Part shown: piece after piece, positions 11,263 to 63,791 of the stretch
Layout: each line of letters begins with the position of its first letter
Numbering within the stretch: the stretch's first letter is position 1
NCBI GenBank assembly: GCA_035457485.1
Contig: DATIBO010000006.1
Span: forward strand, 306,659 to 370,658
Origin: Candidatus Saccharimonadales bacterium
GTDB taxonomy: Bacteria; Patescibacteriota; Saccharimonadia; Saccharimonadales; EFPC-124
Direction: 5' to 3'
Length of the DNA: 64,000 nucleotides
Position numbers and translations under genes: made by a program
The notes under the pieces: model-generated
The model's input: the letters and a program-made list of their open reading frames with translations, nothing else
Told to the model about the DNA's origin: nothing
The model's database searches: none

Positions 11263-11310
11263 TTGTAAAATACTATTGATAAAAAATTACTTAATCGTAC
11301 AATATGCCAC

Positions 11311-29886: not shown

Positions 29887-29904
29887 GCGGGCGTTTCCCA
29901 CAGA

Positions 29905-29936: not shown

Positions 29937-30011
29937 TTAGGAAGAACTTATTTTGACAAAGAACATCATTTATTAGAAAATATTTCAGCACCAAATAGAA
30001 GGAGGTGCTGG

Positions 30012-33568: not shown

Positions 33569-34744
33569 ATGAAAAAGCAACAAATACGTTACACATTAAA
33601 ACACTACCTCCTAGGCGCTATTTCGGCTCGACTTGGCGACGAGATGACCGGTCAGGCGATCTTACTGCTTGGAATTTCGTTAGGCTCAGCAGCACTAGGC
33701 TCAACATTGCTTGCTGGGCTCACGTTTTCGGCTGCAATCGGAGGCCCTTTACTCGGTGCGGTTCTTGATCGCAGTGAGCGACCAGGGCGGACGTTGGCTC
33801 TTTCGCTAGGCTTGTATGCGGTCGGAATTGGGTTAATCGCTTGGTCGATTGGTCATGTTCCGGCTACAATATCGTTCGCGCTTGCTCTGTTGGCTGGTAT
33901 TTTTATGCCTGCGATTTCGGGAGGGTGGTCTTCGCGACTAAAGTCCTTTAATCCTAAAGAGCACATGACGCGTGTTAGTGCCATAGACGCCGCCACTTTT
34001 AATATAGTTGGGCTGGCTGGCCCAGCTTTGGCGGGTATTATCGCTGGATGGCTTGGCGCGAGTTGGGCTGTGGCTGTGATCATTGCGCTACTAGTTGCCG
34101 CATTGCCCATGGCTTGGATTTTGCCTAAACACAAGATCGAATTCGAAAAACGAACATCATTTTTACAAGATGTTCTGTCTGGTTTAAAAATCATTGTTAC
34201 TAATCGAGCTTTGTTTAGGGTTACACTTTTGTCGGTAATTTCTTACATGGGTATTGGTATGTTGTGGGTAATTTGTCCGTTAATTGGCTTGACTCAAACC
34301 GGAAGTGTTGGCTTTGGTGGAATTATGATGTCTGTGCTTTCGGTCGGGGCTCTAATCGCGACATCTCTTTATGCTAAGTGGCCGACGAAGTATAGTGCAG
34401 ATTCTGTTGCGCTGACGACTACGATAATTTTGGCTACTGCTCTTTTGCTATTGGCTTTCGCGGGCAATGTTTTTGTGGTTTTGGCGGCCATGTTTGTTGC
34501 GGGCTTGGCCGACGGTCCTCAGCTAGCCGCGGTGTTTTCTGTACGTCATCGTGAGGCGCCGGAGCAGTTTAGGAGCCAAGTATTCACAACGGGCGCCAGT
34601 TTAAAAATTACTGCCGCCGCGGTAGGTGCACTTGTTGCCGGATATTTGGCCGAGCAATCGATTGTAGTGTCTGCGGTTCTAGCGGCAGGCGTTCAATTGT
34701 TGGCGGCGCTTTCGTACATTTTGGTTCGCAAGGCTAGACATTAG
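33569..34744 (+). CDS. MFS transporter
   Basis: 391 aa, 12-TM-type hydrophobic profile, D-R-x-x-R-type loop (LDRSERPGR). Confidence 0.75.
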   Translation: MKKQQIRYTLKHYLLGAISARLGDEMTGQAILLLGISLGSAALGSTLLAGLTFSAAIGGPLLGAVLDRSERPGRTLALSLGLYAVGIGLIAWSIGHVPATISFALALLAGIFMPAISGGWSSRLKSFNPKEHMTRVSAIDAATFNIVGLAGPALAGIIAGWLGASWAVAVIIALLVAALPMAWILPKHKIEFEKRTSFLQDVLSGLKIIVTNRALFRVTLLSVISYMGIGMLWVICPLIGLTQTGSVGFGGIMMSVLSVGALIATSLYAKWPTKYSADSVALTTTIILATALLLLAFAGNVFVVLAAMFVAGLADGPQLAAVFSVRHREAPEQFRSQVFTTGASLKITAAAVGALVAGYLAEQSIVVSAVLAAGVQLLAALSYILVRKARH

Positions 34745-36258: not shown

Positions 36259-36681
36259 TTACCGCGAGACTGAAATAGTTGCACCGTTTTCAGCGTCTGG
36301 TGCGGCGACGGTTACGATATCGTTAGAGTCCACTGCAACAGTGTATCCGGTATTGTCTGTGGTGCCGCCGCTAGGATCGAGTGGGATATCTTTTATGTAA
36401 TTTGCGAGTGGTGTTGCTAAATTGTCGCAGGTTCCGCATGTCCCTATGTCGGTTACTGCTTGACCAGCCGTTAGGCCCGTTGGTAGTGTTCCGTCATTAT
36501 CAACGATGTATTCATGAATCGCCGTCAAAACTGTATTAACGTCACTCCATCGCCTAGAGTTTCGAGAATCAGCAAAACGTCGGGCTGGATCGTACGAGAC
36601 TAGAGCTATAGAAGCTAGAATTCCGATAACCGTTATAACTATTAATAATTCTAGAATTGTAAAACCTTTTTTACTTTTCAT
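36259..36681 (-). CDS. Type IV pilin (likely major pilin)
   Basis: Prepilin leader and N-methylation site KKGFTILELLIVITVIGILASIAL. Confidence 0.85.
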   Translation of the reverse strand: MKSKKGFTILELLIVITVIGILASIALVSYDPARRFADSRNSRRWSDVNTVLTAIHEYIVDNDGTLPTGLTAGQAVTDIGTCGTCDNLATPLANYIKDIPLDPSGGTTDNTGYTVAVDSNDIVTVAAPDAENGATISVSR

Positions 36682-36727
36682 CTTTAATCTCCTTTTACTT
36701 TAAACAAAATGTGCTTGGGCTATTTTT

Positions 36728-37099
36728 TCATGGCCCCTCCTGCCAGTCTAGGATGTTGACCGTAGTGTTCCGTTCGGCTATAACATGTAGGTTTTTGGTG
36801 TAATCTTGATAACTCCCTGCAACTTTAAAGTCCCATATATTGCCAGTGTGTGAGTTAAGAGTGATCGTACAGGTTGTTGTGGGCGTTATGATGTTTGCCG
36901 GAAGTGAATTATTTGCGCGCAGATACAATAAAACATCTTCGGTGCAACCTTCGACGGCACTTAGGGTTTTGTAAGAAACCGCCATGGTTCGTGATGATTG
37001 CAGGCTATTTATAGACGAAGCAGTCAACGTTATTGTGATTATTGTTAAAATCGCAGTTAAAACTATAACGCTAATTATTGCAACGTAACCCTTTTGCAT
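36728..37099 (-). CDS. Pilus-associated protein (PilX-like N-terminal TM)
   Basis: N-terminal hydrophobic helix within the pilin gene block. The stop of the upstream gene abuts it. Confidence 0.45.
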   Translation of the reverse strand: MQKGYVAIISVIVLTAILTIITITLTASSINSLQSSRTMAVSYKTLSAVEGCTEDVLLYLRANNSLPANIITPTTTCTITLNSHTGNIWDFKVAGSYQDYTKNLHVIAERNTTVNILDWQEGP

Positions 37100-37596
37100 T
37101 ATTCGGCCCTCACTTCGCTGGCAGAAGTTAGTGTTTGGCTCGCCTTAAATTCACTGCGATCGCCGGTTAACTCACCACCAATTGTGAACTTGATGTTGTT
37201 TGAGTTGCCGTGGCTTAAGTTTTCAAAGCTCAAGGTAGCATTAACATCCTGTGGTGTTAAATTGCATGGGTTGGTTGCCGGGCAGGGGGCGGAACTTCCC
37301 CATCCGATTCGTACACGGCCAGAGCTTAAGTCTATTACTGTTGGGTTGCGGGCTGCGTCGAGCGAAGCCAAAGAGACCGAGGTCGGGGTAACTGAATTTA
37401 TTGCGCTTGCGGCTCTAATTTCGAGCTCAATTCGACTGCTTGCAAACCGCAAAGAATTGCTAAGCTTTTGTTGAGTTTGGCTTTTACTGCTAGTGTAGAT
37501 AGCATCCCAGCCAAAAATAACCGCCGACAGAACCAAAATGCTGACTAACCCCACGTAAAGAATTACTTCGATAAATGTAAAACCTGATTTTTTCAT
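37099..37596 (-). CDS. Minor (pseudo)pilin with prepilin-type N-terminus
   Basis: KKSGFTFIEVILYVGLVSIL. Confidence 0.75.
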   Translation of the reverse strand: MKKSGFTFIEVILYVGLVSILVLSAVIFGWDAIYTSSKSQTQQKLSNSLRFASSRIELEIRAASAINSVTPTSVSLASLDAARNPTVIDLSSGRVRIGWGSSAPCPATNPCNLTPQDVNATLSFENLSHGNSNNIKFTIGGELTGDRSEFKASQTLTSASEVRAE

Positions 37597-39011
37597 TGTG
37601 GCCCCGCTACGATTAATTCTGCAGAATTATCATCAGTAACGGCGTAAAGACGATCTTGGCCTGCGGAATAACTTACGCCATTGATATCGGCGCTAGTGTT
37701 GAGTGAGCCGAGTAGAACTGGCGTGGTTAAAGCTGTGTGGTTGATAACCTGGAGCTCCATAGTGTTTTCGTCGGTTGCAGCAAACAAGTAGTTGTTACTG
37801 TTAAAAAGTTCTAAGTCGTTAACGCTAGCTTGCGCGTTAAAAGTGCTGATCTGCACTGGTGAGGCTGGCGTTGTTACATCGATGTAGTGAACTAGGCCGC
37901 CTACCCGGCCAATAATTGCCGTATTAGAAAAGCTTGTGACCGATAGCGCATCGACGTTTCCTGAGGCGTCAAACGAGCTGGTTAAGCTGGGAGTGGTCGG
38001 AGTTGTTACGTTTATAATTTGCAACTCGGCGTTATTACCAGAGGTTGCAGCGTAAGCGTAGGTTTGGTCTGGTTTTACGAAGATGTCGTTGACTGAATTG
38101 GTTCCTAGGCTTAAAGTGCCCAGTAACGTAGGCGAAGAAGGCGTAGTTATATCGATTGTCAAGAAGCTGCCCGCTCTACCAAGGTAGGCGATATTGCCAA
38201 CTGCATATACGCTAAGGCCATTAGCGTTTCCGGATGCGTTAAAACTACCAATTAAAGATGGGCTTGCGGGGTTGGAAATGTCAACAATCTGGAGCTCCTG
38301 AGAGTTAGAGCTAGAGCTTACTAGCGCAGTCGAGCCAATTACATAAAGGTTTGTCGGTGCGTTGCTTAAAGTTAAGCTGCCGACAACGCTTGGGCTTGCG
38401 GGGTTGCTAATGTCCACTGCATAAAAGTTTGTTCCACTACTGGCTATAACGAAAGCATAGTTGCCCTTAACCTGAACCTTTAGGCCATTATTGTTACCAC
38501 TTAAATTAAGACTCCCAACTTGCTGAGGCGTGGCCCACCCGCTGGTGATTGCCTTTGCGAAGTTAGTTAAGTACGTGATGAACGAAACCGAATTAGTTCG
38601 TGTTGGTGAAAAGTTCCAGGTGACGGTTGAGGTTACTTTAAATAAGTCTGGGTCTGCTGTTCCGCCGCTGTCAACTATTTCGTTGCCGCTCCCGCGCTGA
38701 CCAGGAGTAAGATTTACCTGGCGCGTGAACTTGCCAATAGCTTGACTAGTTCCTGCAAATTCCCAAAAGCCGTTCGTGGTGGTTAGGCCGTGGTCGCCCG
38801 GGGTGAGGTTGTTCCAATTTTGAGCACGAATTGATCTTGTAGCTTCGATCGCCTCCTGTGATAAGTCTTTAGCTACTCCCAGCTCTTGCTCGAGTCGGTT
38901 GACGGATAAGCTGTGTAATATTGCGGTGGTACCACCCGCAAAAGCCACTGTAAATATTCCTATAGCGACGATTACCTCGATAATACTAAATCCAAAAATG
39001 CGCCGCATCAA
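37593..39011 (-). CDS. Prepilin-type N-terminus fused to a multi-repeat LVIVD-type beta-propeller (candidate pilus tip adhesin)
   Basis: FGFSIIEVIVAIGIF leader region. At least 6 repeats of the form (V/I)D(I/V)(S/T)xPxSPxxxG(S/T)(L/F). Confidence 0.7.
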   Translation of the reverse strand: MMRRIFGFSIIEVIVAIGIFTVAFAGGTTAILHSLSVNRLEQELGVAKDLSQEAIEATRSIRAQNWNNLTPGDHGLTTTNGFWEFAGTSQAIGKFTRQVNLTPGQRGSGNEIVDSGGTADPDLFKVTSTVTWNFSPTRTNSVSFITYLTNFAKAITSGWATPQQVGSLNLSGNNNGLKVQVKGNYAFVIASSGTNFYAVDISNPASPSVVGSLTLSNAPTNLYVIGSTALVSSSSNSQELQIVDISNPASPSLIGSFNASGNANGLSVYAVGNIAYLGRAGSFLTIDITTPSSPTLLGTLSLGTNSVNDIFVKPDQTYAYAATSGNNAELQIINVTTPTTPSLTSSFDASGNVDALSVTSFSNTAIIGRVGGLVHYIDVTTPASPVQISTFNAQASVNDLELFNSNNYLFAATDENTMELQVINHTALTTPVLLGSLNTSADINGVSYSAGQDRLYAVTDDNSAELIVAGPQ

Positions 39012-39427
39012 TTATCCTCTAGTGTGCCTACCGGGCTTAAGGTTAGGTTGATCGAACGATTATCGCCGCTAACTGTTAATGATAACGTTTGCGATGGTTC
39101 GCCGCGTGGGCTATTGAAGCTTACGTCGCTAAGGCCCGTAACATTCACGCTTTGCGGAATCGAAAAATCCTCACTAAAAGCAGGCGAAGAGCAACTGCTG
39201 CTATAAAGTCTGATGGTACTGGAAGTCTGGCAAACACCCCATGGCCCGCTACCCTTATTTGACATGGCATATGACTGAGCTTTAAGGAGGTAGCTTTTTA
39301 ATATCCCAACTGTCGATATAAATTGCTGTTGTCTGAGTGAATTTGCCGCAAATGGCGCGGTTGCTGTCGCCAGTATGGCAATAAGCGCGATAACCAAAAT
39401 TACTTCTAAAAAACTCACACCTTTCAT
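39008..39427 (-). CDS. Minor pilin (GspH/FimT-like) with prepilin-type N-terminus
   Basis: MKGVSFLEVILVIALIAILA. Confidence 0.7.
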   Translation of the reverse strand: MKGVSFLEVILVIALIAILATATAPFAANSLRQQQFISTVGILKSYLLKAQSYAMSNKGSGPWGVCQTSSTIRLYSSSCSSPAFSEDFSIPQSVNVTGLSDVSFNSPRGEPSQTLSLTVSGDNRSINLTLSPVGTLEDN

Positions 39428-40485
39428 ATTGATAAACTATAAGTTAGGTTGTAAATCGGGCTAAGTAGCGCGATCGCGAACAACCCCACGCTGACCCCCA
39501 AAATAAGAATAAGTACAGGCTCAATGGTTGTGGATATGTTTCTTATCGAATCGTTGACTTCTTCGCGGTAAAAACTTGATAGATATATGAGGTTTTCGTC
39601 GAGATTACCACTCTTTTCGCCTACCACAATCATTCTGGTTACTAGTGGTGGGTAAAGATTATGGTTGTCAATTTTAGCTATACTTTTACTGATCGAGGTT
39701 CCAGATTTTAGGAGTTTAGCGATTTTCTCGAGACTATCACGATATTCTTTGTTAGTTAGGGTTGGTGCTGTTGTCTCTATGGATGTGGCAACAGGTAGGC
39801 CACTCTTAAGAAGTGTGCCAAGGTTTCGTGAAAGTCGCTCTAACTGAGATGATCTAACAACGTCGCGGATGATCGGCAGGTTTAGTAGTGTACTTTGCCA
39901 CCACGGGGAAAGAATAGTGCGAGCTAAAATTACGAATAGAGAAACCAGGACAATTAAACCGATAATTATAGAAATGCCGTAGTCGCTCAAAAAGCCTAAG
40001 AAATTTAGTAAAAATTTGGTCGAGGTTGGAACCGATTCGAACGCCTGCGAGAATTCGATCAATCGCGGAAAAACAATAACGCTCACGATAATTCCAACGA
40101 CGACAAGAGTTACCAGTATGATTGCTGGATAAATCAGAGCCCCTCCGATTCGTGTTTTTAGCCGATATTCGTTCTCGAGTTGCTGCGCTAAAAAAGCTAA
40201 GTTCTCGTTAAGTGACCCCGTTGCTTCACCCGAGGCAACAACGCTTGTGTAAAAGTCATCGAAGATTTTAGGGTACTTTTTTATTGATTTGGTCAGTGTT
40301 TGCCCGTTGTTGATGCTATCGGCTATGCCGCCGAGTGCGATTTTAAGCTGTTTTGATTTTGTTTGCTCTTGCAGAGTTTTTAGAGAATCAACCGGCGAAA
40401 TTCCACTTTTTAGCATTAAAGATAAGTGTCTTGTAACCAACATTTTTTCTTTTAACAGATTCCGCGTGCCAAAAAGTTCGTTCAC
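39424..40485 (-). CDS. pilC: Type IV pilus platform protein PilC (GspF family)
   Basis: 353 aa with duplicated GspF domains and 3 TM segments. Overlaps pilB by 4 nt. Confidence 0.85.
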   Translation of the reverse strand: MNELFGTRNLLKEKMLVTRHLSLMLKSGISPVDSLKTLQEQTKSKQLKIALGGIADSINNGQTLTKSIKKYPKIFDDFYTSVVASGEATGSLNENLAFLAQQLENEYRLKTRIGGALIYPAIILVTLVVVGIIVSVIVFPRLIEFSQAFESVPTSTKFLLNFLGFLSDYGISIIIGLIVLVSLFVILARTILSPWWQSTLLNLPIIRDVVRSSQLERLSRNLGTLLKSGLPVATSIETTAPTLTNKEYRDSLEKIAKLLKSGTSISKSIAKIDNHNLYPPLVTRMIVVGEKSGNLDENLIYLSSFYREEVNDSIRNISTTIEPVLILILGVSVGLFAIALLSPIYNLTYSLSI

Positions 40486-42161
40486 ATTACTTCCTTTATG
40501 ATCCCCAAAATTTCGTCCAAACTAGTAATACCCTGTCTAACTTTATTCAGGCCATCTTCTATAAGTGGTTGCATCCCATTTTTTATGGCGAGATCGCGAA
40601 TGACCTGAGTGTCTTTTTTGTCGGTAATAGCTTTACGAATTTCTTTGTTAGTTTCGAGTACTTCAAAAATTCCTGTCCGACCGCGGTATCCTGTATTAAA
40701 ACAAACTGAGCAACCCTTACCTTTATATGCGCTAAGCTCGGAGATGCTTGAACCAAAGTACTTTTCAATTTCCTTTTTTTCATCGGCAGTAATCTCGTGT
40801 GTTACTCGACAATTTCGACATAGACTACGGACTAATCTTTGTGCAACGATTGAATTCAGCGCGCTCGCTACCAAATAAGCCTCAACACCCATTTCTGACA
40901 TGCGCGCGGGAACTGTCGCTGCATCGTTTGTATGGAAAGTGGACATCACGAGATGACCGGTAAGTGCAGCGTTTATTGCGATGTCGGCTGTTTCTTGATC
41001 TCGGACTTCGCCGACTAGAATAACATTAGGGTCTTGGCGAATTATTGAGCGTAATCCTTTTGCAAAAGTTAGACCTGCTGCCGGATTAACTTGGATTTGG
41101 CGGATTCTTTCGATCTGGTATTCCACTGGATCCTCGATTGTCATTATGTTGAGCTCCGGCTTGTTTATGAGCTTCAAAATTGCATACATTGTGGTTGTTT
41201 TGCCGCAGCCGGTCGGACCGGATGCTAAAAGCATTCCTCGCGATTTTGAGTAAGCTGACTTAATTTTTTGTAGATTGGCCGCCGAAATACCGAGTTCGTG
41301 AATTGAGAGCTCGTGAATATTTTCAGACAAAAGCCGTAGCACAATGTTTTCGCCACGAGTTGTTGGCACTATAGACACTCGAATGTCGATTTGTTTTTCA
41401 TCGGCCAGAAAGGGTATGCTACCATCTTGCGGGCTAAAATGCTCGTCTATTTTTAAATTAGATATGACCTTAATGCGTGTTATGACCTGGTCGAATAAAT
41501 TAGCCGAGATGGTCGTTACGTCATGCAAAATTCCATCGACGCGGAATCTTATTAAGGTTGAATTCTCGCTAGGTTCAATATGAATGTCCGATGCTTTGCT
41601 TCGATAGGCGTAGAGTATTAGTAGGTCTACCAGCTCGATAATATTAGGCCTAGCATCGGAGGGTCTTACCTCGGCCTGCGCTATGCTTGTTGCTAGCTCG
41701 GTTAAAAGATTACCTAAGTAATTCAACAGCGCATCAACAATGTCATTATCGGTGGCATAATAGAGTTCAATTGGTAAATTACTCTTTTGCTTGATCCAAT
41801 CGATCGTGGCCGGTTCTTGCAAGGGGGAGGATGTGGCGACTTTTAGTTTGGTCCCGTTTTTTGCAAACGCGATTAGTTTATGCTTTTGGGCGAAATCCTC
41901 AGGTACTATCTGTAGCACATCAAGTGGTAAGGATATTTGTGAAAGCTGCACGAATGGTAGCTTGTAAAGGTCGGCGACAATTTGACCCAAGATTACGTCG
42001 TCTACCAGCCCTTGATCGGAGATGACTTTTGCTAATGTTTGGCCGCTTTGCTTCGCAAGTGAATATGACTCTTGTAACGACTGAGCCTCCACAATGCCAG
42101 ACTTTCTCAAGAAATCCAAAAGAGATGTGTCGATATCAATGTTCTTCATCGTCCTTACCAT
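40482..42161 (-). CDS. pilB: Type IV pilus assembly ATPase PilB (GspE family)
   Basis: Walker A GPTGCGKTTT, Asp/His boxes, tetracysteine motif (CxxC...CxxC). Confidence 0.92.
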   Translation of the reverse strand: MVRTMKNIDIDTSLLDFLRKSGIVEAQSLQESYSLAKQSGQTLAKVISDQGLVDDVILGQIVADLYKLPFVQLSQISLPLDVLQIVPEDFAQKHKLIAFAKNGTKLKVATSSPLQEPATIDWIKQKSNLPIELYYATDNDIVDALLNYLGNLLTELATSIAQAEVRPSDARPNIIELVDLLILYAYRSKASDIHIEPSENSTLIRFRVDGILHDVTTISANLFDQVITRIKVISNLKIDEHFSPQDGSIPFLADEKQIDIRVSIVPTTRGENIVLRLLSENIHELSIHELGISAANLQKIKSAYSKSRGMLLASGPTGCGKTTTMYAILKLINKPELNIMTIEDPVEYQIERIRQIQVNPAAGLTFAKGLRSIIRQDPNVILVGEVRDQETADIAINAALTGHLVMSTFHTNDAATVPARMSEMGVEAYLVASALNSIVAQRLVRSLCRNCRVTHEITADEKKEIEKYFGSSISELSAYKGKGCSVCFNTGYRGRTGIFEVLETNKEIRKAITDKKDTQVIRDLAIKNGMQPLIEDGLNKVRQGITSLDEILGIIKEVM

Positions 42162-42519
42162 TCAAAAGCGAGATAGCCTTACTAACGACTTTTGTCAGTG
42201 AAACGTGTGACTTTACCAAGTAATCTTTTGCGCCCAGACTTTTGGCTCGCCGAATGTCTTCTGGTTGACTCAAATTTGAAAGCACAAGAACCAGCTTGTT
42301 TTTATCACGAACACTTTCTAGCACGTCCCAGCCATCTAAATTCGGCATTAAAATGTCTAAAATAATGAGATCGAAGCTATTTGACTCGATCAGAGGAATA
42401 GCTTCAACGCCGTCAAGAGCGACTGTCGCTAGAAAACCGTCGGCTTCAAATCGCTGTTTTAAAGCTTTGGCGAGAGCCTCTTCATCTTCAATTATTAAAA
42501 CGCTAAACTGTTTTTTCAT
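42136..42519 (-). CDS. Response-regulator receiver protein
   Basis: VLIIEDEE...DLIILDILMPNLDG...K. Located between the kinase and pilB. Confidence 0.85.
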   Translation of the reverse strand: MKKQFSVLIIEDEEALAKALKQRFEADGFLATVALDGVEAIPLIESNSFDLIILDILMPNLDGWDVLESVRDKNKLVLVLSNLSQPEDIRRAKSLGAKDYLVKSHVSLTKVVSKAISLLNGKDDEEH

Positions 42520-43558
42520 CTTGCAATCCTTTCTTGCGCATTCCAGTTAGAGGTATAGATACATAAAATGTTGTACCAGGATGTTTAGGTGAGCCAGACT
42601 CTGAAGGTGATGTGTACCAAATTTTTCCGCCCGCTTCTTCTATAAGGCGTTTTGCATCAAACAAACCTAAACCAACGCCACGCGGGTCGGCGAGCCTAGC
42701 TTCTTCTGATCTAAAGAATTTAGTAAACATCTGTTCTCGATATCGTGGTGAGATTCCAAATCCTGTGTCTTCGACGGTGCAAATAACGTTTTTTGCTTGG
42801 TCGAGCGAGTGTGATATATTAACTGATCCACCAGGCGGGGTGTAGGTAATTGCATTAGAAACCAATGTGCGATACACAGTTCCAAGGATATTAGGATCAA
42901 CTTTAATTACGGGTATTTCATCATGTGACTCACGTATGTAAACTCCTTTTTTGTTTGCTTCATTCTTGAAATACTCTACGGCGCTGTGCATGATTTTGAC
43001 CACATCTCCAGGTACGGGATCGATCGCAAAAGTGTTGAGTTCGATTCGCGAGGCATAGAGTAGCTCATCGGTTGTCTCAATTGCCTTGAGTGTGGCAACC
43101 TCGGCCTCGAGTAAGTAGCTTTTCTGCTCGTCGTTCAGCGTTGGGTCATGTGAAAGACTCTCGACGTACCAACGAATAACTGTTAGTGGAGTTTGAAGTT
43201 GGTGCCCAGCGAGCGAAATAAATTGGGTCTTAGCATCGTCAAGCTCTTTTTGCTTTGTCATGTCGGAGTGCACCTCGACGAAAAATTCAACCTCCTTGTG
43301 GTCATCTAATACCGGAAAAATCATCGCTCGGCTGTAAAAAATGCTGCCATCTTTACGCTTGTTTTTGAACTCACCTATAAAAGGCTTTTTTTGCAATTTT
43401 ATAGTCTGCCATAGCTTTTTATAAAACGACTTTGGCATAAGACCGCCCCAAAGTTCTTTTGAGCCAACTTTTTTACCGACAACTTCGTTAAGTGGGAATC
43501 CAGTTAGTTCCTCGACGGCTTTATTGGCGTAAAAAACCGTACCGTCAACATCAGTCAT
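42503..43558 (-). CDS. PAS-domain sensor histidine kinase
   Basis: PAS (DVDGTVFYANKAVEELTG), H-box AGHQLQTPLT, N/G boxes. The frame stays open 81 nt upstream with no canonical start, so the PAS N-terminus may be clipped or use an unusual start. Confidence 0.8.
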   Translation of the reverse strand: MTDVDGTVFYANKAVEELTGFPLNEVVGKKVGSKELWGGLMPKSFYKKLWQTIKLQKKPFIGEFKNKRKDGSIFYSRAMIFPVLDDHKEVEFFVEVHSDMTKQKELDDAKTQFISLAGHQLQTPLTVIRWYVESLSHDPTLNDEQKSYLLEAEVATLKAIETTDELLYASRIELNTFAIDPVPGDVVKIMHSAVEYFKNEANKKGVYIRESHDEIPVIKVDPNILGTVYRTLVSNAITYTPPGGSVNISHSLDQAKNVICTVEDTGFGISPRYREQMFTKFFRSEEARLADPRGVGLGLFDAKRLIEEAGGKIWYTSPSESGSPKHPGTTFYVSIPLTGMRKKGLQDEKTV

Positions 43559-45206: not shown

Positions 45207-45761
45207 ATGCGAAAAATTATAGCAACAATATCGTTAAGCGTTGACGGTTACTTTTGTGGCCCGAATGGCGAGATCGACTGGTTTGTATTAGATAAAGAAT
45301 TTGACGATCACTCACTAGAAGTTTTGGACACGGTTGATACATTTTTGTTTGGTCGTACAACTTACGAAGGTATGGCGAACTATTGGCCAACACAGGGAGA
45401 TAAGTATAATCCAGAAGTTGCTAAACGAATGAATGGCTATGCGAAGATTGCGGTTTCTGACAAGCCGATCGATCTAAGCTGGAACAATTCGCAACAACTC
45501 CAGGGTGATTTAATCGAAGAAGTCACGAAATTAAAACAGCAAGAGGGCGCAAATATTTGCATTTACGGAAGCGGCGACATTGTGCGTCAGCTAACCGATG
45601 CAGGTTTAATTGATGAATACAACTTACTAATTGACCCGGTTATTCTTGGCGATGGCAAAACCTTGTTTAAAGGAGTGAAACATAGAACGGCTTTAAATCT
45701 TAACGAAGTCCGACAGTTCAAGTCTGGCGTAGTTTTGCATAATTATACATTGCAAAAGTAG
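45207..45761 (+). CDS. Dihydrofolate-reductase-like (RibD C-terminal domain) family protein
   Basis: ISLSVDGY...FGRTTYEGMANYW...IYGSGDIVRQL...DEYNLLIDPVILGDGKTLF. Confidence 0.75.
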   Translation: MRKIIATISLSVDGYFCGPNGEIDWFVLDKEFDDHSLEVLDTVDTFLFGRTTYEGMANYWPTQGDKYNPEVAKRMNGYAKIAVSDKPIDLSWNNSQQLQGDLIEEVTKLKQQEGANICIYGSGDIVRQLTDAGLIDEYNLLIDPVILGDGKTLFKGVKHRTALNLNEVRQFKSGVVLHNYTLQK

Positions 45762-45786
45762 CTAAAAACATAATGCGATGCTCGTG

Positions 45787-46236
45787 TTATTTTGCTTGTA
45801 AAACTTCTAGAGTATACAAAATTTCACTCGCGTGAGTTGCGGGTGTGACTTTGGGAAATTCATGCACGATTTGACCATCAGGGTTGATAATAAAAGTTTT
45901 TCGCAACGTTCCAACATGTCCTAAAAAACCTTTGCCCCACGCGCCGTAGGCCTTAATGGTGCTTTTGGCGGGGTCGCTTAAAAGCGTAAATGGTAACTTG
46001 TAGTTTTTAATAAAATTAGCGTGACTTTCGACCGAATCTTTAGAGATGCCGATCACAACGGCATCTTTTGCTATTAGCGACTCATTAGCGTCACGAAATG
46101 AACATGCCTCGGCAGTGCATCCCGGAGTTTGGTCTTTAGGGTAAAAGTACAGAACTACCCATTTGCCGGCAAAATCCGTCAGCGTTTTGACGTTGCCGTT
46201 TTGATCTTTTAGCGAAAAGTTTGGAGCTTGCTTCAT
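45787..46236 (-). CDS. bcp: Peroxiredoxin Bcp (thiol peroxidase)
   Basis: FYPKDQTPGCTAEAC active-site region. Confidence 0.88.
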   Translation of the reverse strand: MKQAPNFSLKDQNGNVKTLTDFAGKWVVLYFYPKDQTPGCTAEACSFRDANESLIAKDAVVIGISKDSVESHANFIKNYKLPFTLLSDPAKSTIKAYGAWGKGFLGHVGTLRKTFIINPDGQIVHEFPKVTPATHASEILYTLEVLQAK

Positions 46237-46304
46237 AAGTATACTTTATCATTTAGTGAGTTAAACTTAAATTCGGCCAGCTATTGAGGCTAAAACTAAA
46301 AGTA

Positions 46305-46333
46305 TTGACATGGGCGTGACGGTAAACTACAGT
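46305..46333 (+). promoter_or_regulatory. Sigma70-like promoter upstream of the lasso precursor
   Basis: TTGACA-17 nt-TACAGT in AT-rich sequence about 65 nt upstream of the precursor ATG. Confidence 0.5.
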
Positions 46334-46399
46334 TTTTATTTGTGCGTTGTACATACACACATCGCACGTACCCACGAATCCCGCAAAGGGGGTGAATGA

Positions 46400-46516
46400 A
46401 TGAACTTCGACGAGGAGTACGAGGTCCCGGCCACGCAGGAGATCGGTGGCGTGGTGGAAATCACGCTCGGCTCGGCCGGCAACGACAAGAAGGACGACAC
46501 CCAGTACTGGGTGTGA
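46400..46516 (+). CDS. Lasso peptide precursor (38 aa; predicted 23-aa leader + 15-aa core)
   Basis: Not in the track, which shows a different frame. Translation: MNFDEEYEVPATQEIGGVVEITL|GSAGNDKKDDTQYWV. AAGGGGGTG lies 5-7 nt upstream. Thr at -2, Gly1 and Asp9. Immediately upstream of C-B1-B2. Confidence 0.8.
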   Translation: MNFDEEYEVPATQEIGGVVEITLGSAGNDKKDDTQYWV

Positions 46517-46524
46517 CGTCCGAA

Positions 46525-46556
46525 CCTCGAGGCCAGGCTTGCGCCTGGCCTCGAGG
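46525..46556 (+). promoter_or_regulatory. Perfect 14-bp GC hairpin between precursor and cyclase genes (attenuator/stabiliser)
   Basis: CCTCGAGGCCAGGC-TTGC-GCCTGGCCTCGAGG. No T-tract follows. Confidence 0.6.
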
Positions 46557-46579
46557 CCCCATCTACTCAAAGGAGTAAT

Positions 46580-48349
46580 ATGCAATGGGTTGCAGGGTTC
46601 TGGCCTCGACGAGACGCCATGAACAAACCTGTGGTTTTCCCAAAAAACTCACATGCCCACAATATGCTGTGGAATGTTGGGTACGAATGTACCGAGTTCC
46701 GTCGATTTAGCTCTGGTTCCACAACCGTCACGGTTGTAGGATCATGTCTGGCTACAGACGTCGAACTCAACGCCGCACTCCCAGCCGCCGATTCCGAGCG
46801 CTGGGAGATTTTTGCACAGTGGCCAGGTTCGTACATTGCCGTTGTGCAAAGAGCGCATGAAGCAGTAGTGATTACTGATCTTGCTGGGGCGAAACCGGTC
46901 TTCTGGGTAAAAACCGACTCTGGATGGTGGTGGTCGACAGCAGCGACACCTTTGGCGGCGTTGATGCGGTCAAAGGTTAACATTCGAGCACTTCTTACGC
47001 CTCTGATGGTGGCAGGAGTAGATGCGTGGGGCGGAGAAACGCCTTACGAGAAGGTGATGGTAGTTAAGCCGGGTTCGGTTCTTCGCCTGTCACATGACGG
47101 GCCGAAGGTCGAAACTTGGTATAAGCCAACGGTATTGTCGTTCGCCGAAGGGCAGCACAATTTCCGCGCCGCTCTCACTGATTCAGTCGGTCGGCGAGCA
47201 GCCCTAGGTGACATCTCTAGCGATTTGTCGGGAGGTATCGACTCAAGCCTTATTGCGCTGCTCGCAAGCCGCTTGACGGTTGTTCACGGAGCGACCTATG
47301 TTGATCCGTGGCAAAGAAACGATGACGCCGATTATGCTCGGCGCGTCGCAGGGTTCGGCGGAATCAGGCAAATTCTTGTCGAAGGCGACCAAACAACCAC
47401 TCACTACAGCGATCTCGATGAAGCGCCATTTACGGATACACCGTCGGCCGATGGGGTCTTGTTCGGCTACAACCGAGCAAAGCTTCAAGCTGTGAAGGCG
47501 GCGGGTTCTCGACACCATCTAACCGGAGCTGCGGGTGATTGCATGCTTTTGTCTCCCTACCCATGGGTGGCGGAGCTGTATAAGCACCAGCGGCTTCAGG
47601 CTCTCCGTTGGGCGCGCCAAGAAGCTCGGCGTCGTTTGACGTCAAGTCGGCGATTCATCCTCGCAACGCGTCGACTGGCTACAACATCATTTGCCAATGA
47701 AGCCGCAAGGCTGGCAGGCGGAGTTGAGGTGGCCGAAAAGACGGCATGGTCTTCAGTCTGCTGGCTTAAGTGGATGGAGTCCGCCATCTGGCTAACCGAA
47801 CAAGGTCGCTCGATGTTGTGTGGTCGTCTCGAGGAGATATCCTACGAGTTGGATCCGCCCGAGAATCCTGGCGCGAATCTCGATTGGCAAAGTCTTAGGG
47901 CTACGGCGATCGAGCGCACGACCGCGGTTGAGTTTGCGCGTTCCATTGGAATCACGCTCCACAATCCGTTTTTCGACACTCAGGTGATTGATGCTTGCCT
48001 GTCGATTCCGGGATATGAGCGTGCTCCCCTGGACACGTTTAAGCCGCTAGCAACGCTGGGCTTTATGGCAGAGTTGCCGGAGTTTTTGCGCCAGCGTCGC
48101 ACTAAGGGCGACTTTGCCGGCACGATGCTTCACGGTATTCTGTTTAACCAGCACTGGCTGAAGCGCATGATCGAAAGTTCGGCTCTGGTAGAAATGGGGT
48201 TGATCGACAGAGATCAGCTACGTCAAAGTGTTCAATCTGCGATTTACGGATTTGACACTCAGCTGCGCGGGATTCACCACCTGACTACGATCGAAATGTG
48301 GTTGAGGTCCCGCGATCTGCGTCCTACTGTTTGGTGGGAGATGCTGTGA
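46580..48349 (+). CDS. Lasso peptide cyclase (asparagine synthetase-like, C protein)
   Basis: 589 aa with the PP-loop ATP-pyrophosphatase motif DLSGGIDSS. AAGGAG RBS. Lasso cluster context. Confidence 0.85.
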   Translation: MQWVAGFWPRRDAMNKPVVFPKNSHAHNMLWNVGYECTEFRRFSSGSTTVTVVGSCLATDVELNAALPAADSERWEIFAQWPGSYIAVVQRAHEAVVITDLAGAKPVFWVKTDSGWWWSTAATPLAALMRSKVNIRALLTPLMVAGVDAWGGETPYEKVMVVKPGSVLRLSHDGPKVETWYKPTVLSFAEGQHNFRAALTDSVGRRAALGDISSDLSGGIDSSLIALLASRLTVVHGATYVDPWQRNDDADYARRVAGFGGIRQILVEGDQTTTHYSDLDEAPFTDTPSADGVLFGYNRAKLQAVKAAGSRHHLTGAAGDCMLLSPYPWVAELYKHQRLQALRWARQEARRRLTSSRRFILATRRLATTSFANEAARLAGGVEVAEKTAWSSVCWLKWMESAIWLTEQGRSMLCGRLEEISYELDPPENPGANLDWQSLRATAIERTTAVEFARSIGITLHNPFFDTQVIDACLSIPGYERAPLDTFKPLATLGFMAELPEFLRQRRTKGDFAGTMLHGILFNQHWLKRMIESSALVEMGLIDRDQLRQSVQSAIYGFDTQLRGIHHLTTIEMWLRSRDLRPTVWWEML

Positions 48350-48615
48350 AGCTTTCTCAGGATGCATACCCTGTGTTCGACAAGCTTACGGGATCGGCGT
48401 ACGTTCTCCTGCTCAGGACTGGCAAGTGGCGTTTTTTTAATCCGTCGGCCGGAAAGCTGTTAAAGCAACTAGCCGACGGTGTAGATCTGGAAACGGCTCT
48501 ACGAAACGTCGCCGCAGGATACAGGAGGCCGGTTGACGTCGATGTCTTAAGGATCGACATGGAGCCCGTACTTCGGGCAATGATCGACCTCGGAATCCTA
48601 GAGGAGAACGAGTGA
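48346..48615 (+). CDS. PqqD-like RiPP recognition element (lasso B1 protein)
   Basis: 89 aa from a GTG overlapping the cyclase TGA (GTGA). The track gives a longer in-frame ORF from 48298. Size and position fit B1. Confidence 0.7.
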   Translation: MKLSQDAYPVFDKLTGSAYVLLLRTGKWRFFNPSAGKLLKQLADGVDLETALRNVAAGYRRPVDVDVLRIDMEPVLRAMIDLGILEENE

Positions 48616-49028
48616 CAGTTAATATGCTGCCGCCAGATAGTTCTGGCAGTGGGCTGAGCCTTGGCTACAAAGTCCTGGGTTTTCTGAGCCTTCTTTTGGC
48701 GGTCACTTCACTTCGAGTTCTGTCCTTGGCGACGTTGGTTACCACCTTGATCAAGGTGAAGCCTGATCGTGCAGCCAGCTCAAGGCAGGCAGAGGACTAC
48801 ATCCGCGCTATTCAGTGGGCAGGTAATTTCTACTTCGGTAGAGTTGCCTGCCTAGAAAGAGCTGTCGGTGTCGCAATCCTCGCGGCCATGGTCCGCAGGC
48901 GGGTTACAAGTTGCATTGGTGCTCGCTTTCGACCCAACGAGTTCCATGCTTGGACTGAGGTCGACGGCACTCCGGTCATGGAGATCGAAAGTGCCGATTG
49001 GCCCTACCAAGCCGCGGTAAGGTTTTAG
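48612..49028 (+). CDS. Transglutaminase-like cysteine protease (lasso leader peptidase, B2 protein)
   Basis: 138 aa with Cys in GRVACLERA and His/Asp in EFHAWTEVDG. The GTG overlaps the B1 stop. Confidence 0.8.
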   Translation: MTVNMLPPDSSGSGLSLGYKVLGFLSLLLAVTSLRVLSLATLVTTLIKVKPDRAASSRQAEDYIRAIQWAGNFYFGRVACLERAVGVAILAAMVRRRVTSCIGARFRPNEFHAWTEVDGTPVMEIESADWPYQAAVRF

Positions 49029-49033
49029 GGTAC

Positions 49034-49062
49034 GGTCTGCATGGCATCCAGCTATGCAGACC
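49034..49062 (+). terminator. Hairpin closing the lasso cluster
   Basis: GGTCTGCAT-N11-ATGCAGACC, a 9-bp stem 6 nt after the B2 stop. Confidence 0.5.
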
Positions 49063-49253
49063 ACTAACGATATTATTAAACTGCATCAGAGTACTGGGAT
49101 GCCAGTTACCAAAACTCTAACGAAAGTGACGCCACGCGTTGTTTAGTCAGTTGGGAGAAGTAAAGCCACATCTTTGTTTTATTAAGTTAACAAATATATT
49201 TGATTATCCTGCAACTTTCTGAGATGATGTAATTATAACTAAGGGGAGGTTCT

Positions 49254-50099
49254 ATGGTCTTAAGCTCAGTTCGCAAAATAAGCAGATTTTTTATTGGACT
49301 TTTGGTTTCGGCTTTAATGGTTTTACCAGCGGTCGGCGTTCAAGCAGCTGCACCAGGCAGTTTATATAGCTACACTCTTGATGGCGCGTCAGCGACAGTG
49401 ACGAATAATGCCGCAGCTAACACCAACGTAAACCTTAACTTACTCGGTGATTGGTCGCAAACTAGCTTTGGGGTCAAGTTCGAGGGCAACACAACTAATA
49501 AGCAGTCTGTAGGCTATGCTAAACCAGCTAGCGGCAGTACCATTAACGTTCCTGCTTCGCAAGCATTCGGCGGAAGTGTCTTGTTTAAGTACCAGGCACC
49601 AACAAGCGGAACGTGCTTTGCAGACTCGCCAAACATCACACAAATTGGCAAATATGGCGCGGGTCTTACGCAGTTTAAATTTCAAATAAGTAATTGTGGC
49701 AAGAGTCAAACTGCAGTGTTTCCCCAGTGTCGTGTTGCGGGAAGTAGTGGCGCGAACAATCCAGTAATGGGAACTCAATCCCTGATCGATGGCTACGATT
49801 ATATTTTGCAGTGTATAAAATCTCCAGATCCAGCTAGCGGGAGCGCAAGTTTGCAAATGAACTTGACTAAAATTGACCCAGTAAATGGTAATGTGACCTA
49901 CACAAACAATTTTGCGATTAACAAAACTGGAACACTTAATTCCACTCAGTATTTAAGTGTTGCCAATCAATACCCACTTAAGTCGCAGGCAAACAACACT
50001 GATCAATTTAACGGTGAAGTTTCGAAAGTTGCTTATTGCACCGGCGCAACTGTAGCCGACGCACAAATTTGTTTGGATACAGAAGTACCTCTACAGTAA
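49254..50099 (+). CDS. Secreted protein (281 aa), unknown function
   Basis: Signal peptide ending VGVQAAAPG. Thr/Asn/Gly-rich beta-type sequence. GGGGAGG RBS. Confidence 0.6.
   Translation: MVLSSVRKISRFFIGLLVSALMVLPAVGVQAAAPGSLYSYTLDGASATVTNNAAANTNVNLNLLGDWSQTSFGVKFEGNTTNKQSVGYAKPASGSTINVPASQAFGGSVLFKYQAPTSGTCFADSPNITQIGKYGAGLTQFKFQISNCGKSQTAVFPQCRVAGSSGANNPVMGTQSLIDGYDYILQCIKSPDPASGSASLQMNLTKIDPVNGNVTYTNNFAINKTGTLNSTQYLSVANQYPLKSQANNTDQFNGEVSKVAYCTGATVADAQICLDTEVPLQ

Positions 50100-59589: not shown

Positions 59590-59595
<6 letters not shown>
59534..59595. repeat. tRNA-Glu 3'-flank unit (master copy) incl. terminator-like hairpin
   Basis: AACAAAAAAGCCCCACAAAATAAATTATGGAACTCTTTCGTATCTGTTGATAATTTTGGTGA, duplicated at 53721-53782. 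Confidence 0.7.
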
Positions 59596-59664
<69 letters not shown>

Positions 59665-59822: not shown

Positions 59823-60854
59823 TTACTTGGCCGGCGCCTTCGGGTCGGGGATGGTGATCCCCAGCCCGGCTCCCCCGAGGGAGAGCAGGCCGTCCGGCAG
59901 GGCGTTCAGCGCGTCGATCTGTGCGCAGCTCGGGCACGTGTTGTACCCGCGCTGGCGCGCCTCGTTCGCGTCGGCGTCCAGCACGGCCTTGGCCTTGGCC
60001 GCCTGCGCGGCGTTGGCGTCGGCCCAGGCGGCCAGCGTCTTGTCGATGCTCGTCTGAACCTTGTCGCTGATGACCAGTTCGACGCTGTTGAACACGACCT
60101 TGATCTCGCCGACCCAGCCGCCGAGCTTGGCCAGCTCTTCCTCGAGCCGCTTCTGCACGGCCGTCTGGATCTTCTCCCGGTTCGACGTCGCCTCAGGCGT
60201 CATCGCATCCGGGTTGATCACCTCCACGGGAGTCTGACCAGGCTTGACCTCGGTGGTGGTCTGCGGCTTGACCAGCTTGCACTTCGGGTTGAGCGCAGTG
60301 CAGTCGTACTTGACGATCTCGTCGCGGATGGCCGCGTCCGAGGCCTTGATCAGCACCGCGTCCAGGAAGGCGCGCCACCCCTTGAGCTCGTCGTACGAGT
60401 CGGACGGGAAGTAGAACTCCCCGTCGGCGCCCCGGTACTTGCGCGAGCCGTAGCTCGCGTCGAACTCCTTCAGCTTCTCGGCGTCACCCGTGATCGTGAT
60501 CAGCATCTGCCCCTTGATGCCGACGTCGATGCCGTCGCGCGTGGGGAAGGCGTTGTAGTTCACGCCGGGCTCGTCGGTCTTGTATGCGCCGACGAAGTCG
60601 ATGGGCTGCGGGGAACTGGGGTAGTACCGGACCTTCGACCACCAGCCGGTCCACTTGATGTTGGAGCCGGATCCGATGGTCATGAAGGGCTTACGGTCGT
60701 CGAACGGGCCGCCGTTGCGGACGACCGCGATCTGGCCGCTCTCGGTACTGGTGTAGCTGTCGAGAACGCCGACGAAGCCGACGCTACCGATCAGCGCGAG
60801 GAGGACGAAGAAGCCCTTCGTGGGCCCCGATCGCTCTCTCAGCCAGTCGATCAT
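59823..60854 (-). CDS. GC-rich membrane-anchored SPFH/band-7 (prohibitin-like) domain protein
   Basis: N-terminal TM, then GQIAVVRNGG...-type SPFH start, and a C-terminal Ala/Lys-rich coiled region. Start at the ATG after GGGAG. Strongly G/C-ending codons. Confidence 0.6.
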   Translation of the reverse strand: MIDWLRERSGPTKGFFVLLALIGSVGFVGVLDSYTSTESGQIAVVRNGGPFDDRKPFMTIGSGSNIKWTGWWSKVRYYPSSPQPIDFVGAYKTDEPGVNYNAFPTRDGIDVGIKGQMLITITGDAEKLKEFDASYGSRKYRGADGEFYFPSDSYDELKGWRAFLDAVLIKASDAAIRDEIVKYDCTALNPKCKLVKPQTTTEVKPGQTPVEVINPDAMTPEATSNREKIQTAVQKRLEEELAKLGGWVGEIKVVFNSVELVISDKVQTSIDKTLAAWADANAAQAAKAKAVLDADANEARQRGYNTCPSCAQIDALNALPDGLLSLGGAGLGITIPDPKAPAK

Positions 60855-61063
60855 GGCAAACTCCCAGTTGTGCATGAGCAATACGGTTGCTCACCCGGAG
60901 AAGATTAAAATCCCCTCATAAAAAAGCCAGAAAGCCCTGGCCGTCTTAAGAAGAGATTTTTGTCTTCAGCGATCTAAAATATACAACTTTTTTTACTAAA
61001 CGTCAACTATTTTGTATATTGTGCACTTCTCCTTTTAAGCTCGATCTGTTATCCTATAGGTCG

Positions 61064-62548: not shown

Positions 62549-63082
62549 TCAGCAACCGCCGACTGTGTTGAGTGGGACGCGGAGCTGATCGGCGTACCAC
62601 CGTCGAGTGTGTGGCCGAGTGTATGGCACGGTCGGAGTCTGAAGTTCCTGACGCTGCGACTGCGTGAGTGTGGTCAGGTAGTTCATCAGAATCCGATTGG
62701 AGTGCGAGTTGTTGGGCAGCCGGCGGGCGAACAACTGTTCGCACCAGGCATCCCACATCACTCGGTTGATCAGGTACACGTTCTTGTGCGAGCCGTTGAT
62801 GACCCCGTTGGTCAGTTCGCGAACAGTTCCGCGAGCGATGATGACGCCGAGCACCAGCGCGATGACTGACGTGATCGCCCAGAACGCAGTGCGCCCGTTA
62901 CCGGTGATCTCGAACAGCTTCACGATACAGAAGATGATGATCTGAAAGATCAGCATCGAGAGGCCCGGCACCCAGCCGTGGTTGTTGTAAGCCCAGGCCT
63001 TGAGCGAGCGGGGCTTGCGGCTGATAGCCACATACGTGTTCATGTGCTTCCGATCTGCTCGTAGACGAACAAAACTTGCCAT
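62549..63082 (-). CDS. GC-rich 2-TM membrane protein (177 aa), unknown function
   Basis: Track ORF with G/C-ending codons. An AT-rich, SD-less upstream region has TATGAT 5 nt before the ATG. Confidence 0.55.
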   Translation of the reverse strand: MASFVRLRADRKHMNTYVAISRKPRSLKAWAYNNHGWVPGLSMLIFQIIIFCIVKLFEITGNGRTAFWAITSVIALVLGVIIARGTVRELTNGVINGSHKNVYLINRVMWDAWCEQLFARRLPNNSHSNRILMNYLTTLTQSQRQELQTPTVPYTRPHTRRWYADQLRVPLNTVGGC

Positions 63083-63124
63083 ACTATATCATAATTTTAT
63101 TAAAATGTACATAAGTTCAGACTT

Positions 63125-63152
63125 CCAACTGCCAGCACGGGGCGGCAGTTGG
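63125..63152 (-). terminator. Hairpin after the 63169-63672 gene
   Basis: CCAACTGCC-N10-GGCAGTTGG, a 9-bp stem with no T-tract. Confidence 0.4.
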
Positions 63153-63168
63153 GTAGTCCTCGTTCTGG

Positions 63169-63672: not shown

Positions 63673-63791
63673 TTGCCCTCCTCCAATTCTCGGAGTTGAC
63701 TCTTGTGGAACGAGTCTACGGCCAGTAATTATACAACTTAATTAAAACTTGTCAAAATGAATTAACCGCCTGCTTATGCTTAAATACAAGT

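Follow-up and report, generated by a model that had tools for sequence, protein, structure and literature searches.

An exporter-less, four-gene lasso-peptide cassette in a Saccharimonadales genome

A lasso operon in a GC-rich islet

The DNA analysed here is a 64-kb stretch of the genome of a Candidatus Saccharimonadales bacterium (contig DATIBO010000006.1; hereafter the window). It contains a GC-rich islet that is identified, by family profiles and conserved residues, as an intact minimal class II lasso-peptide operon with the gene order A-C-B1-B2, of the type in which B is split into two genes. We hold with moderate confidence that this operon is functional and would make a 15-residue peptide with a ring closed between G1 and D9, that it has no dedicated genes for export or immunity, and that the cassette was acquired laterally within a clade centred on Saccharimonadales. 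The islet and its genes are:

46363–49064, no strand: GC-rich islet, 2,702 bp between two compositional change points
46400–46516, + strand: precursor gene A, an open reading frame (ORF) of 38 aa
46580–48349, + strand: lasso cyclase C, 589 aa, with AAGGAG upstream at 46570–46575
48346–48615, + strand: B1, PqqD-like leader-recognition element, 89 aa (105 aa from an alternative start at 48298)
48612–49028, + strand: B2, transglutaminase-like leader peptidase, 138 aa

None of the four ORFs is disrupted, and all share one orientation. The stop of C and the start of B1 overlap by 4 nt, as do the stop of B1 and the start of B2, and through these overlaps C, B1 and B2 would be translationally coupled. 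The GC content is 0.554 in the islet vs 0.450 in the remainder of the window, and maximum likelihood places the change points at 46363, 37 nt 5′ of the precursor ATG, and at 49065, 37 nt 3′ of the B2 stop and just beyond a 12-bp hairpin. This bears out an earlier note on this DNA, made from the sequence alone, which had described a lasso cluster set off from its flanks by composition, with a GC switch about 30 nt before the precursor ATG. In an independent Logan assembly (SRR25158331, a 45-kb contig), 21,770 nt are identical to the window with both junctions included, so the junctions are not an artefact of one assembler.

The left flank of the islet encodes bcp, a RibD_C protein and Nramp, and the right flank a 281-aa secreted protein without assigned family (an exact-match look-up of which returned only the same contig), followed by a metallophosphatase. 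Family scans found no integrase or recombinase in the flanks, direct repeats flanking the islet are limited to 12–27-mers at chance level, with none that is att-like, and the nearest tRNAs, at 14176 and 59593, do not adjoin it. In lacking a recombinase, repeats and an adjoining tRNA, the islet does not show the features of an integrase-mobilised genomic island. A check for phage carriage gave no relative in viral contigs (IMG/VR).

Enzymes of the operon

C is a homologue of Asn synthetases (PF00733, 4.4e-29) and scores 315 bits against the NCBI family NF033561, ‘albusnodin/ikarugamycin family macrolactam cyclase’ (cutoff 300). It keeps the PP-loop SGGIDS, in which G219, D221 and S222 are invariant; it begins with MQWV and has no N-terminal Cys nucleophile. 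A search of C against PDB sequences gave no match. B2 matches PF13471 (7.5e-16) and NF033537 (56.6 bits, cutoff 33), with invariant Cys80 and His112 and, 12 positions past the His, an invariant acidic residue (Glu124 in the window). The operon thus holds two of the components expected of a class II lasso system, a PP-loop Asn-synthetase-like cyclase and a transglutaminase-like Cys protease with its Cys and His.

Taken alone, B1 is a weak match that stays below the family cutoffs (PF05402, PqqD, E 0.007; NF033530, E 1e-4), and BLASTP gave no alignment with the B1 of L004, a related Saccharimonadales locus described below. A profile of eight B1 sequences, with the window B1 as its first row, matches TbiB1 (5v1u, 2.8e-11) and TfuB1 (6jx3, 5.7e-10) over their full length. 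Through this family profile, B1 is recognised as a PqqD-like RRE (RiPP recognition element, where RiPPs are peptides made on ribosomes and modified after translation).

Precursor and predicted peptide

The precursor consists of the leader MNFDEEYEVPATQEIGGVVEITL, with Y-17, P-14, G-8 and T-2, and the 15-residue core GSAGNDKKDDTQYWV; the leader ends in EIT(-2)L(-1) and the core runs from G1 through D9 to V15. It therefore has the layout of a class II precursor, with Thr at −2, Gly at core position 1, Asp at position 9 and a tail, and its leader contains the conserved Tyr, Pro and Gly of the recognition motif. Conservation of these three residues and of T-2 within this group has been described (Cao et al., bioRxiv 10.1101/2021.05.19.444711). 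Among the precursors recovered from ∼45 loci (44 precursor ends plus those of L051, L053, L054 and L055), T-2, G1, T11 and Y13 are kept in all related precursors, and core position 9 is always acidic, being Asp in all save L054, where it is Glu. In the L004 core, D9 is the sole Asp. Together, the conservation of G1 and of an acidic position 9 and the single Asp of L004 point to a G1–D9 ring, and the predicted product has a mass of 1664.743 Da (the 15-mer minus one water). A literature search with the core sequences returned no matches.

In the maturation pathway that we propose, B1 would bind the leader through the Y-17/P-14/T-2 motif, B2 would cut after Leu-1, and C would adenylate Asp9 and then join it to the amine of Gly1. 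The product would be a 15-residue lasso with a nine-residue ring, a short loop formed by D10-T11-Q12, and Tyr13/Trp14 as steric locks.

Export, immunity and tailoring genes

The observation of the earlier note that neither flank encodes an ABC exporter, an isopeptidase or a regulator holds. The flank families include no ABC exporter, isopeptidase or methyltransferase, and regulators come no closer than a histidine kinase and a receiver protein (42136–43558) that are part of a pilus/type II secretion system (T2SS) block. Across the 64-kb window, the ABC signature LSGGQ occurs in no ORF of at least 110 aa, and tblastn with the Streptomyces exporter D and PCMT methyltransferase gave no match. Family scans of the operon and its flanks revealed no acetyltransferase gene. 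An isopeptidase was not found beside any lasso cluster examined; isopeptidases are a feature of another group of lasso clusters (PMC9266682). The peptide would leave the cell by a non-dedicated route or stay cell-associated. The same note had treated the missing exporter as special, and this part did not stand: none is found nearby, but its absence is ordinary for the clade to which the window cassette belongs and for the cellulonodin-2/lihuanodin family.

Three genes 12–16 kb to the left of the operon touch on this subject. One encodes a protein with an OmdA/YdeI ‘bacteriocin-protection’ domain (30647–30958, − strand), and two encode major facilitator superfamily (MFS) transporters, at 31582–32925 (+ strand; MFS_1) and 33569–34744 (+ strand; MFS_1 and MFS_3, ‘transmembrane secretion effector’). 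Among the genes of the window, only these three are candidates for non-dedicated export or protection.

Related loci in Saccharimonadales and uncultured bacteria

An exhaustive HMMER search with C through 1.84 billion representative proteins yielded 208 matches below 1e-30 and no protein above 39% identity; the top matches were unnamed metagenome proteins and the L004 protein HSE60792.1 (Saccharimonadales). In a scan of one genome per species, 41 loci were found, of which the best (38%) lies on L004, a contig of a Saccharimonadales metagenome-assembled genome (MAG), and the remaining ones are from Streptomyces and Kitasatospora, mostly at 30–34% identity. The nearest cyclases (35–39%) are located on Saccharimonadales contigs (L004 and L046) or uncultured contigs. 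The closest of them, at 38–39%, are those of L004, L046, L051, L053, L054 and L055, whose islets have a GC content of 0.53–0.57, which is largely the pattern that the earlier note had itself named as speaking against its proposal of a host-derived pathway.

Nine related loci were recovered (L002, L004, L045, L046, L051, L052, L053, L054 and L055), of which L046 breaks off within C and L045 is missing its 5′ part. Every related locus with a readable downstream flank has the order A-C-B1-B2, and, in the fetched sequence, a D exporter or PCMT gene is present in none of the nine loci, nor in the window. Each locus lies in a different gene context, with only the lasso genes in common; the neighbours in L051, for example, are a pilin, a sortase, TilS and DinB. 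L046 is assigned to Saccharimonadales because its GatB groups with proteins of this order (73–75% identical to named Saccharimonadales/Saccharimonas proteins, and 65% to the GatB of the window genome). The contigs with the bcp homologues closest to that of the window (86%, 72% and 70–71%; L047–L049) have other neighbours on both sides and only bcp in common with the window.

In a bootstrapped neighbour-joining tree of cyclases (200 bootstraps), the grouping of the window with L004 has 77% support, and its union with P0002 and P0003 of the uncultured clade 83%. An 87-taxon tree agrees, with ∼35 uncultured representatives and the window forming a single deep clade. Divergence inside the clade is deep (cyclases 32–39% identical). 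It is sister to the Streptomyces/Kitasatospora clusters termed type 1 below in the bootstrapped neighbour-joining tree, and to types 1 and 2 jointly in the 87-taxon tree.

Several of the related contigs show further features. In L004, the lasso precursor is preceded at a distance of 290 nt by a tRNA-Trp gene (5320–5395), which could be the integration site of the L004 cassette. In L054, a gene for a 708-aa YcaO-nitroreductase fusion (10933–13059) lies ∼420 nt downstream of the lasso B2; it is a second RiPP system, resembling those for linear azol(in)e-containing peptides (LAPs), of the kind reported for genomes of the Candidate Phyla Radiation (CPR). A 232-kb contig with P0003 (JGI sample 3300047160) carries five tandem lasso cyclase genes with B-type partners in ∼17 kb. 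In L048 (8534–11188) and L049 (3588–6263), the bcp gene (∼70%) is followed by one for an 884–891-aa protein with GATase_6/7 and Asn_synthase domains; the latter gene is of the true asparagine-synthetase type, as opposed to lasso cyclases, and nothing in the window corresponds to it. The TPA MAG proteins P0022, P0309 and P0382 are labelled Magnetospirillaceae or Candidatus Acidoferrum and are 62–77% identical to Saccharimonadales bcp or GatB; these labels are probably binning errors in public records.

Comparison with known lasso systems

Type 1 comprises the Streptomyces and Kitasatospora clusters with the core GSAGN(N/D)(N/K)xDDTQYW(Q/T), among them GSAGNNNADDTQYWQ, GSAGNDKADDTQYWT (L011) and GSAGNDNPDDTQYWQ (L006). 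We found no description of them in the literature searched. A 655-aa ABC exporter D lies directly downstream in 22/22 type-1 loci with the flank available, and B1 and B2 are fused into one protein of ∼263 aa (confirmed in L005 and L006). The window shares with type 1 the precursor template (T-2, G1, D9, T11, Y13 and a 15-residue core) and the cyclase family NF033561. It differs in having split B1 and B2 genes and no D in 64 kb, whereas type 1 has a fused B and D, and its cyclase is 33–34% identical to those of type 1 and belongs to the other, uncultured/Saccharimonadales clade.

The resemblance to type 1 is concentrated in the core peptide. The window core is identical to that of L011 at 13/15 positions and to that of L006 at 12/15. 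At the DNA level, the A gene is 84–90% identical to its Streptomyces counterparts, but only over the 49–56 nt that encode the core; the leader DNA cannot be aligned with Streptomyces A genes. A recent replacement of A from Streptomyces was rejected in view of this restriction of the similarity to the core stretch. Over its whole length, the window precursor is 57% identical to type-1 precursors vs 31–44% to those of other Saccharimonadales.

Type 2 consists of Streptomyces loci with DTAD-motif cores (GTNNFDTADDTQYKNA) and split B1/B2 genes, 16 of which have a PCMT methyltransferase. By these features type 2 is identified as the aspartimidylated cellulonodin-2/lihuanodin family, homologous to the window cluster. 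Clusters of this family have no ABC transporter, and their peptides remained in E. coli pellets (bioRxiv 10.1101/2021.05.19.444711). In common with them, the window has the A-C-B1-B2 order, no ABC transporter, a G1–D9 nine-residue ring (predicted in the window), the leader residues T-2/Y/P/G and Tyr13 as a steric lock. However, the cellulonodin-2/lihuanodin clusters have a PIMT homologue and the window has no PIMT-type methyltransferase (tblastn with the PCMT of L008 as query). The ring motif is D6-K7-K8-D9 in the window and DTAD at positions 6–9 in cellulonodin-2/lihuanodin, so that the window peptide lacks Thr7, a residue that assists aspartimide formation (Cao et al., bioRxiv 10.1101/2021.05.19.444711). 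The window architecture, with a split B, no D and no tailoring gene, fits neither type 1 nor type 2.

Two other comparisons are relevant. The albusnodin cluster of Streptomyces albus encodes an acetylated lasso peptide (PMC9266682). The window cyclase scores above the cutoff of the family named after albusnodin (NF033561), but no acetyltransferase gene (albT) lies in the operon or its flanks and core position 10 is Asp, whereas the albusnodin type has albT and a conserved, acetylated Lys10. For CPR genomes, biosynthetic clusters have been reported rarely, and those for RiPPs are of the LAP/YcaO and lanthipeptide kinds (Sharrar et al. 2020, PMC7298704). The RiPP cluster of the window resembles these in its compactness and in belonging to a symbiotic bacterium of ultra-small size, and differs in being of the lasso class, as no CPR lasso cluster is reported there. 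Lasso peptides of Saccharibacteria or Patescibacteria came up nowhere in the literature searched.

Base composition of the islet and its precursor gene

The GC content of C at the first and second codon positions (GC1 and GC2) is 0.60 and 0.49, vs 0.54 and 0.39 in genes of the surrounding genome. This reflects a protein rich in Ala, Arg and Gly, and about half of the GC excess of the islet comes from amino-acid composition. At third positions (GC3), C has 0.56, vs 0.45 for all ORFs of the surrounding genome of at least 150 aa and 0.40–0.46 for the immediate neighbours; the range for C, B1 and B2 is 0.56–0.61. Streptomyces values are 0.79 in the one cyclase measured (L006) and 0.89–1.0 in precursor-gene ends. 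Among the relatives, the GC3 of the cyclase equals that of the genome around it in L004 (0.58 vs 0.59) and L053 (0.59 vs 0.58), is below it in L046 (0.48 vs 0.54) and exceeds it by 0.07 in L051.

The precursor gene has a GC3 of 0.92 (0.94 in the core-encoding part). Values of at least 0.90 are reached by 0.05% of 39-codon segments in genes of the surrounding genome, and the maximum inside C is 0.74. High values are also found in the precursor genes of four relatives; that of L054 is lower (0.71).

L004, 5701–5817: precursor gene, GC3 0.81–0.87
L046, 9795–9923: precursor gene, GC3 0.93
L053, 9638–9748: precursor gene, GC3 0.97
L055, from 7808: precursor gene, GC3 1.00

The cyclases in loci with such precursors have a GC3 of 0.48–0.59, and the genes around them 0.43–0.59. 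Because the high precursor GC3 recurs across lineages whose cyclases are 32–39% identical, it is no sign that the gene arrived recently; the recurrence instead suggests selection on the synonymous sites of the gene, and our preferred guess is selection on the precursor transcript. A special RNA structure in the coding region of A was considered as the cause and rejected (z = −1.0, not significant). It is the intergenic hairpin between A and C that accounts for the structure signal of the transcript as a whole (z −5.1).

Promoter candidate and hairpins

The elements around the four genes that may govern their expression are:

46305–46333, + strand: candidate sigma70-like promoter, TTGACA-17-TACAGT, 10/12 consensus matches
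46387–46394, + strand: Shine-Dalgarno-like AGGGGGTG, 5 nt before the precursor ATG
46525–46556, + strand: perfect 14-bp GC-rich hairpin between A and C (inverted repeat, 100% complementary)
49034–49062, + strand: 12-bp hairpin without a U-tract, at the islet's 3′ edge and directly 3′ of the B2 stop (z −3.49)

The promoter candidate lies in the AT-rich intergenic DNA between the divergent bcp and lasso genes, 30 nt outside the islet, and is the best-scoring site within 45700–49400. This region contains 4 promoter-like sites vs 2.7 ± 1.9 in shuffles, so the consensus match alone is not significant. The earlier note had called it the only good promoter; it was right about the position and the AT-rich setting of the site. 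Transcription would probably begin at this site. Motifs similar to AGGGGGTG (GGGGGTG or GGGGTG) are present 5′ of the precursors in L004 and L046.

The hairpin between A and C has a folding energy of −36.8 kcal/mol (z −6.35), and equally strong hairpins of unrelated sequence occur at the same position in L004, L046 and L002. Lasso operons usually make or keep the precursor transcript in excess of the enzyme transcript. The A–C hairpin is a candidate for an attenuator or an mRNA stabiliser governing the ratio of A to the enzymes, and would probably raise the ratio of precursor to enzyme transcript. In local alignments of the non-coding DNA upstream and downstream of the operons of the window, L004, L046 and L002, scores were no better than those of shuffles. 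The promoter regions are thus lineage-specific.

Origin of the cassette

The reading that we favour is that the window cassette belongs to a deep and diverse clade of exporter-less four-gene cassettes present in several Saccharimonadales and related uncultured genomes. Such cassettes would have resided for long in mid-GC Saccharimonadales-like genomes, and the one in the lower-GC window genome would have come in laterally from a mid-GC donor, in the simplest case another member of Saccharimonadales. The clade as a whole would share an older ancestry with the Streptomycetaceae clusters. A mid-GC donor is preferred to a direct transfer from an actinomycete, as the latter would leave far higher GC3 and protein identity. 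It is on this point that the results part from the earlier note, which had proposed, as an unproven hypothesis, a pathway derived from the actinobacterial host of the epibiont and re-wired to a native promoter. Such an origin, if fairly recent, would account for the Streptomyces and Kitasatospora affiliation of the named relatives of the family, for the core that is identical to a Streptomyces core at 13/15 positions (with 84–90% DNA identity over 49–56 nt), for the actinomycete-like GC3 of the precursor gene (0.92) and for the start of the islet 30 nt past the promoter-like site; other window genes with a GC3 of 0.76–0.93, including an SPFH gene with a Nonomuraea match, also suggest uptake of high-GC DNA. 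However, C is 30–34% identical to actinobacterial cyclases vs 38–39% to those of Saccharimonadales and uncultured bacteria, the GC3 of C, B1 and B2 (0.56–0.61) is far from actinomycete values, and the DNA similarity of the A gene ends at the core, with an unalignable leader. The high GC3 of A recurs in L004, L046, L053 and L055 and is thus a property of the clade, and the architecture differs in that B is split rather than fused and D is absent. We therefore consider a recent origin from the host quite unlikely.

Vertical descent would make the cassette old in Saccharimonadales, with frequent loss and local rearrangement responsible for its patchy distribution and changing neighbours. The equality of cyclase and genome GC3 in L004 and L053 and the deep divergence in the clade (32–39%) would be expected in this case, as would the lack of mobility genes, att-like repeats and a nearby tRNA in the window. 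Yet the GC3 of the window C exceeds that of its genome by 0.11–0.14 and the change points are sharp, contigs with a bcp 70–86% identical to that of the window carry no lasso genes, the flanks differ at every locus, and the distance of 290 nt between the L004 cluster and tRNA-Trp would fit site-specific insertion; on balance, we regard vertical descent as unlikely. An assembly or binning chimera, or a decaying and non-functional remnant, might be suspected in view of the metagenome-assembled source, the atypical composition and the visibly mislabelled bins among TPA records. It is highly improbable, given that the Logan assembly is identical across both junctions, that the record is a single 889-kb contig, that all four ORFs are unbroken and show both conserved catalytic residues and coupled overlaps of starts and stops, and that related cassettes lie inside other Saccharimonadales contigs.

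Several points weigh against lateral acquisition within the Saccharimonadales-centred clade, the reading favoured here, or against parts of it. The trees are distance-based and built on proteins of 30–39% identity, and, since the position of the clade differs between them, they fix no direction for the ancient transfer. Three of the clade contigs are assigned to Saccharimonadales and the others are unclassified. An empty site was not found among the contigs with the closest bcp homologues (L047–L049). The affinity of the precursor (57% to Streptomyces) is opposite to that of the cyclase, and neither this nor the precursor GC3 of 0.92 fits a simple single-history model. The promoter match at 46305–46333 is statistically indistinguishable from chance, and the negative result for an exporter covers the 64-kb window of an 889-kb genome contig.

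Other features of the window

An SPFH/Band_7 gene (59823–60881, − strand) has a GC content of 0.65 and a GC3 of 0.93, vs ∼0.42 for the genome, and lies ∼160 nt from the tRNA at 59593–59664. Its sole match in a plasmid collection is from Nonomuraea gerenzanensis (33% identity), and no phage match was obtained; the gene has the look of an independent acquisition, un-ameliorated, from a donor of high GC content. GC-rich patches at 29236–30563, 4069–4464 and 62549–63745 contain ORFs with a GC3 of 0.72–0.86, none of which has a Pfam family; a lipoprotein-like ORF (30012–30563) and a membrane-protein ORF (29236–29886) are among them. In the left flank, the region 36259–43558 holds a type IV pilus/T2SS block with pilins, T2SSF and T2SSE, after which come a PAS histidine kinase and a receiver-only response regulator. 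These genes are typical of Saccharibacteria and appear unrelated to the islet.

Significance

The genes themselves are no discovery, since the NCBI pipeline already names the cyclase family, and the missing exporter and isopeptidase are ordinary. What makes the cassette worth following is its Saccharibacterial setting, a core nearly identical to that of a Streptomyces peptide linked to an exporter, and the anomalous GC3 of its precursor gene. Related lasso cassettes, intact and exporter-less, occur in at least three Saccharimonadales genomes. The window operon specifies a concrete 15-residue molecule of defined predicted mass, near-identical to a Streptomyces core that is always paired with an exporter. 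The analysis also corrects the inference that a GC-rich islet in an epibiont is a gene taken from its host, as the synonymous sites indicate a mid-GC donor. The extreme precursor GC3 found across hosts poses a puzzle about selection on RiPP precursor transcripts.

To our knowledge, no small molecules are known in the epibiosis between Saccharibacteria and Actinobacteria. In a speculative and rather doubtful extension of these findings, Saccharimonadales epibionts would keep and exchange among themselves a stripped-down lasso cassette whose product is close to the molecule that Streptomyces produces alongside a dedicated immunity exporter, used on, or as a signal to, the actinobacterial host or against the competitors of that host. 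Lacking the target, the epibiont would have no need of immunity, and the precursor GC3 of ∼0.9 would result from selection on the mRNA, for stability or translation, independently of the composition of the carrying genome.

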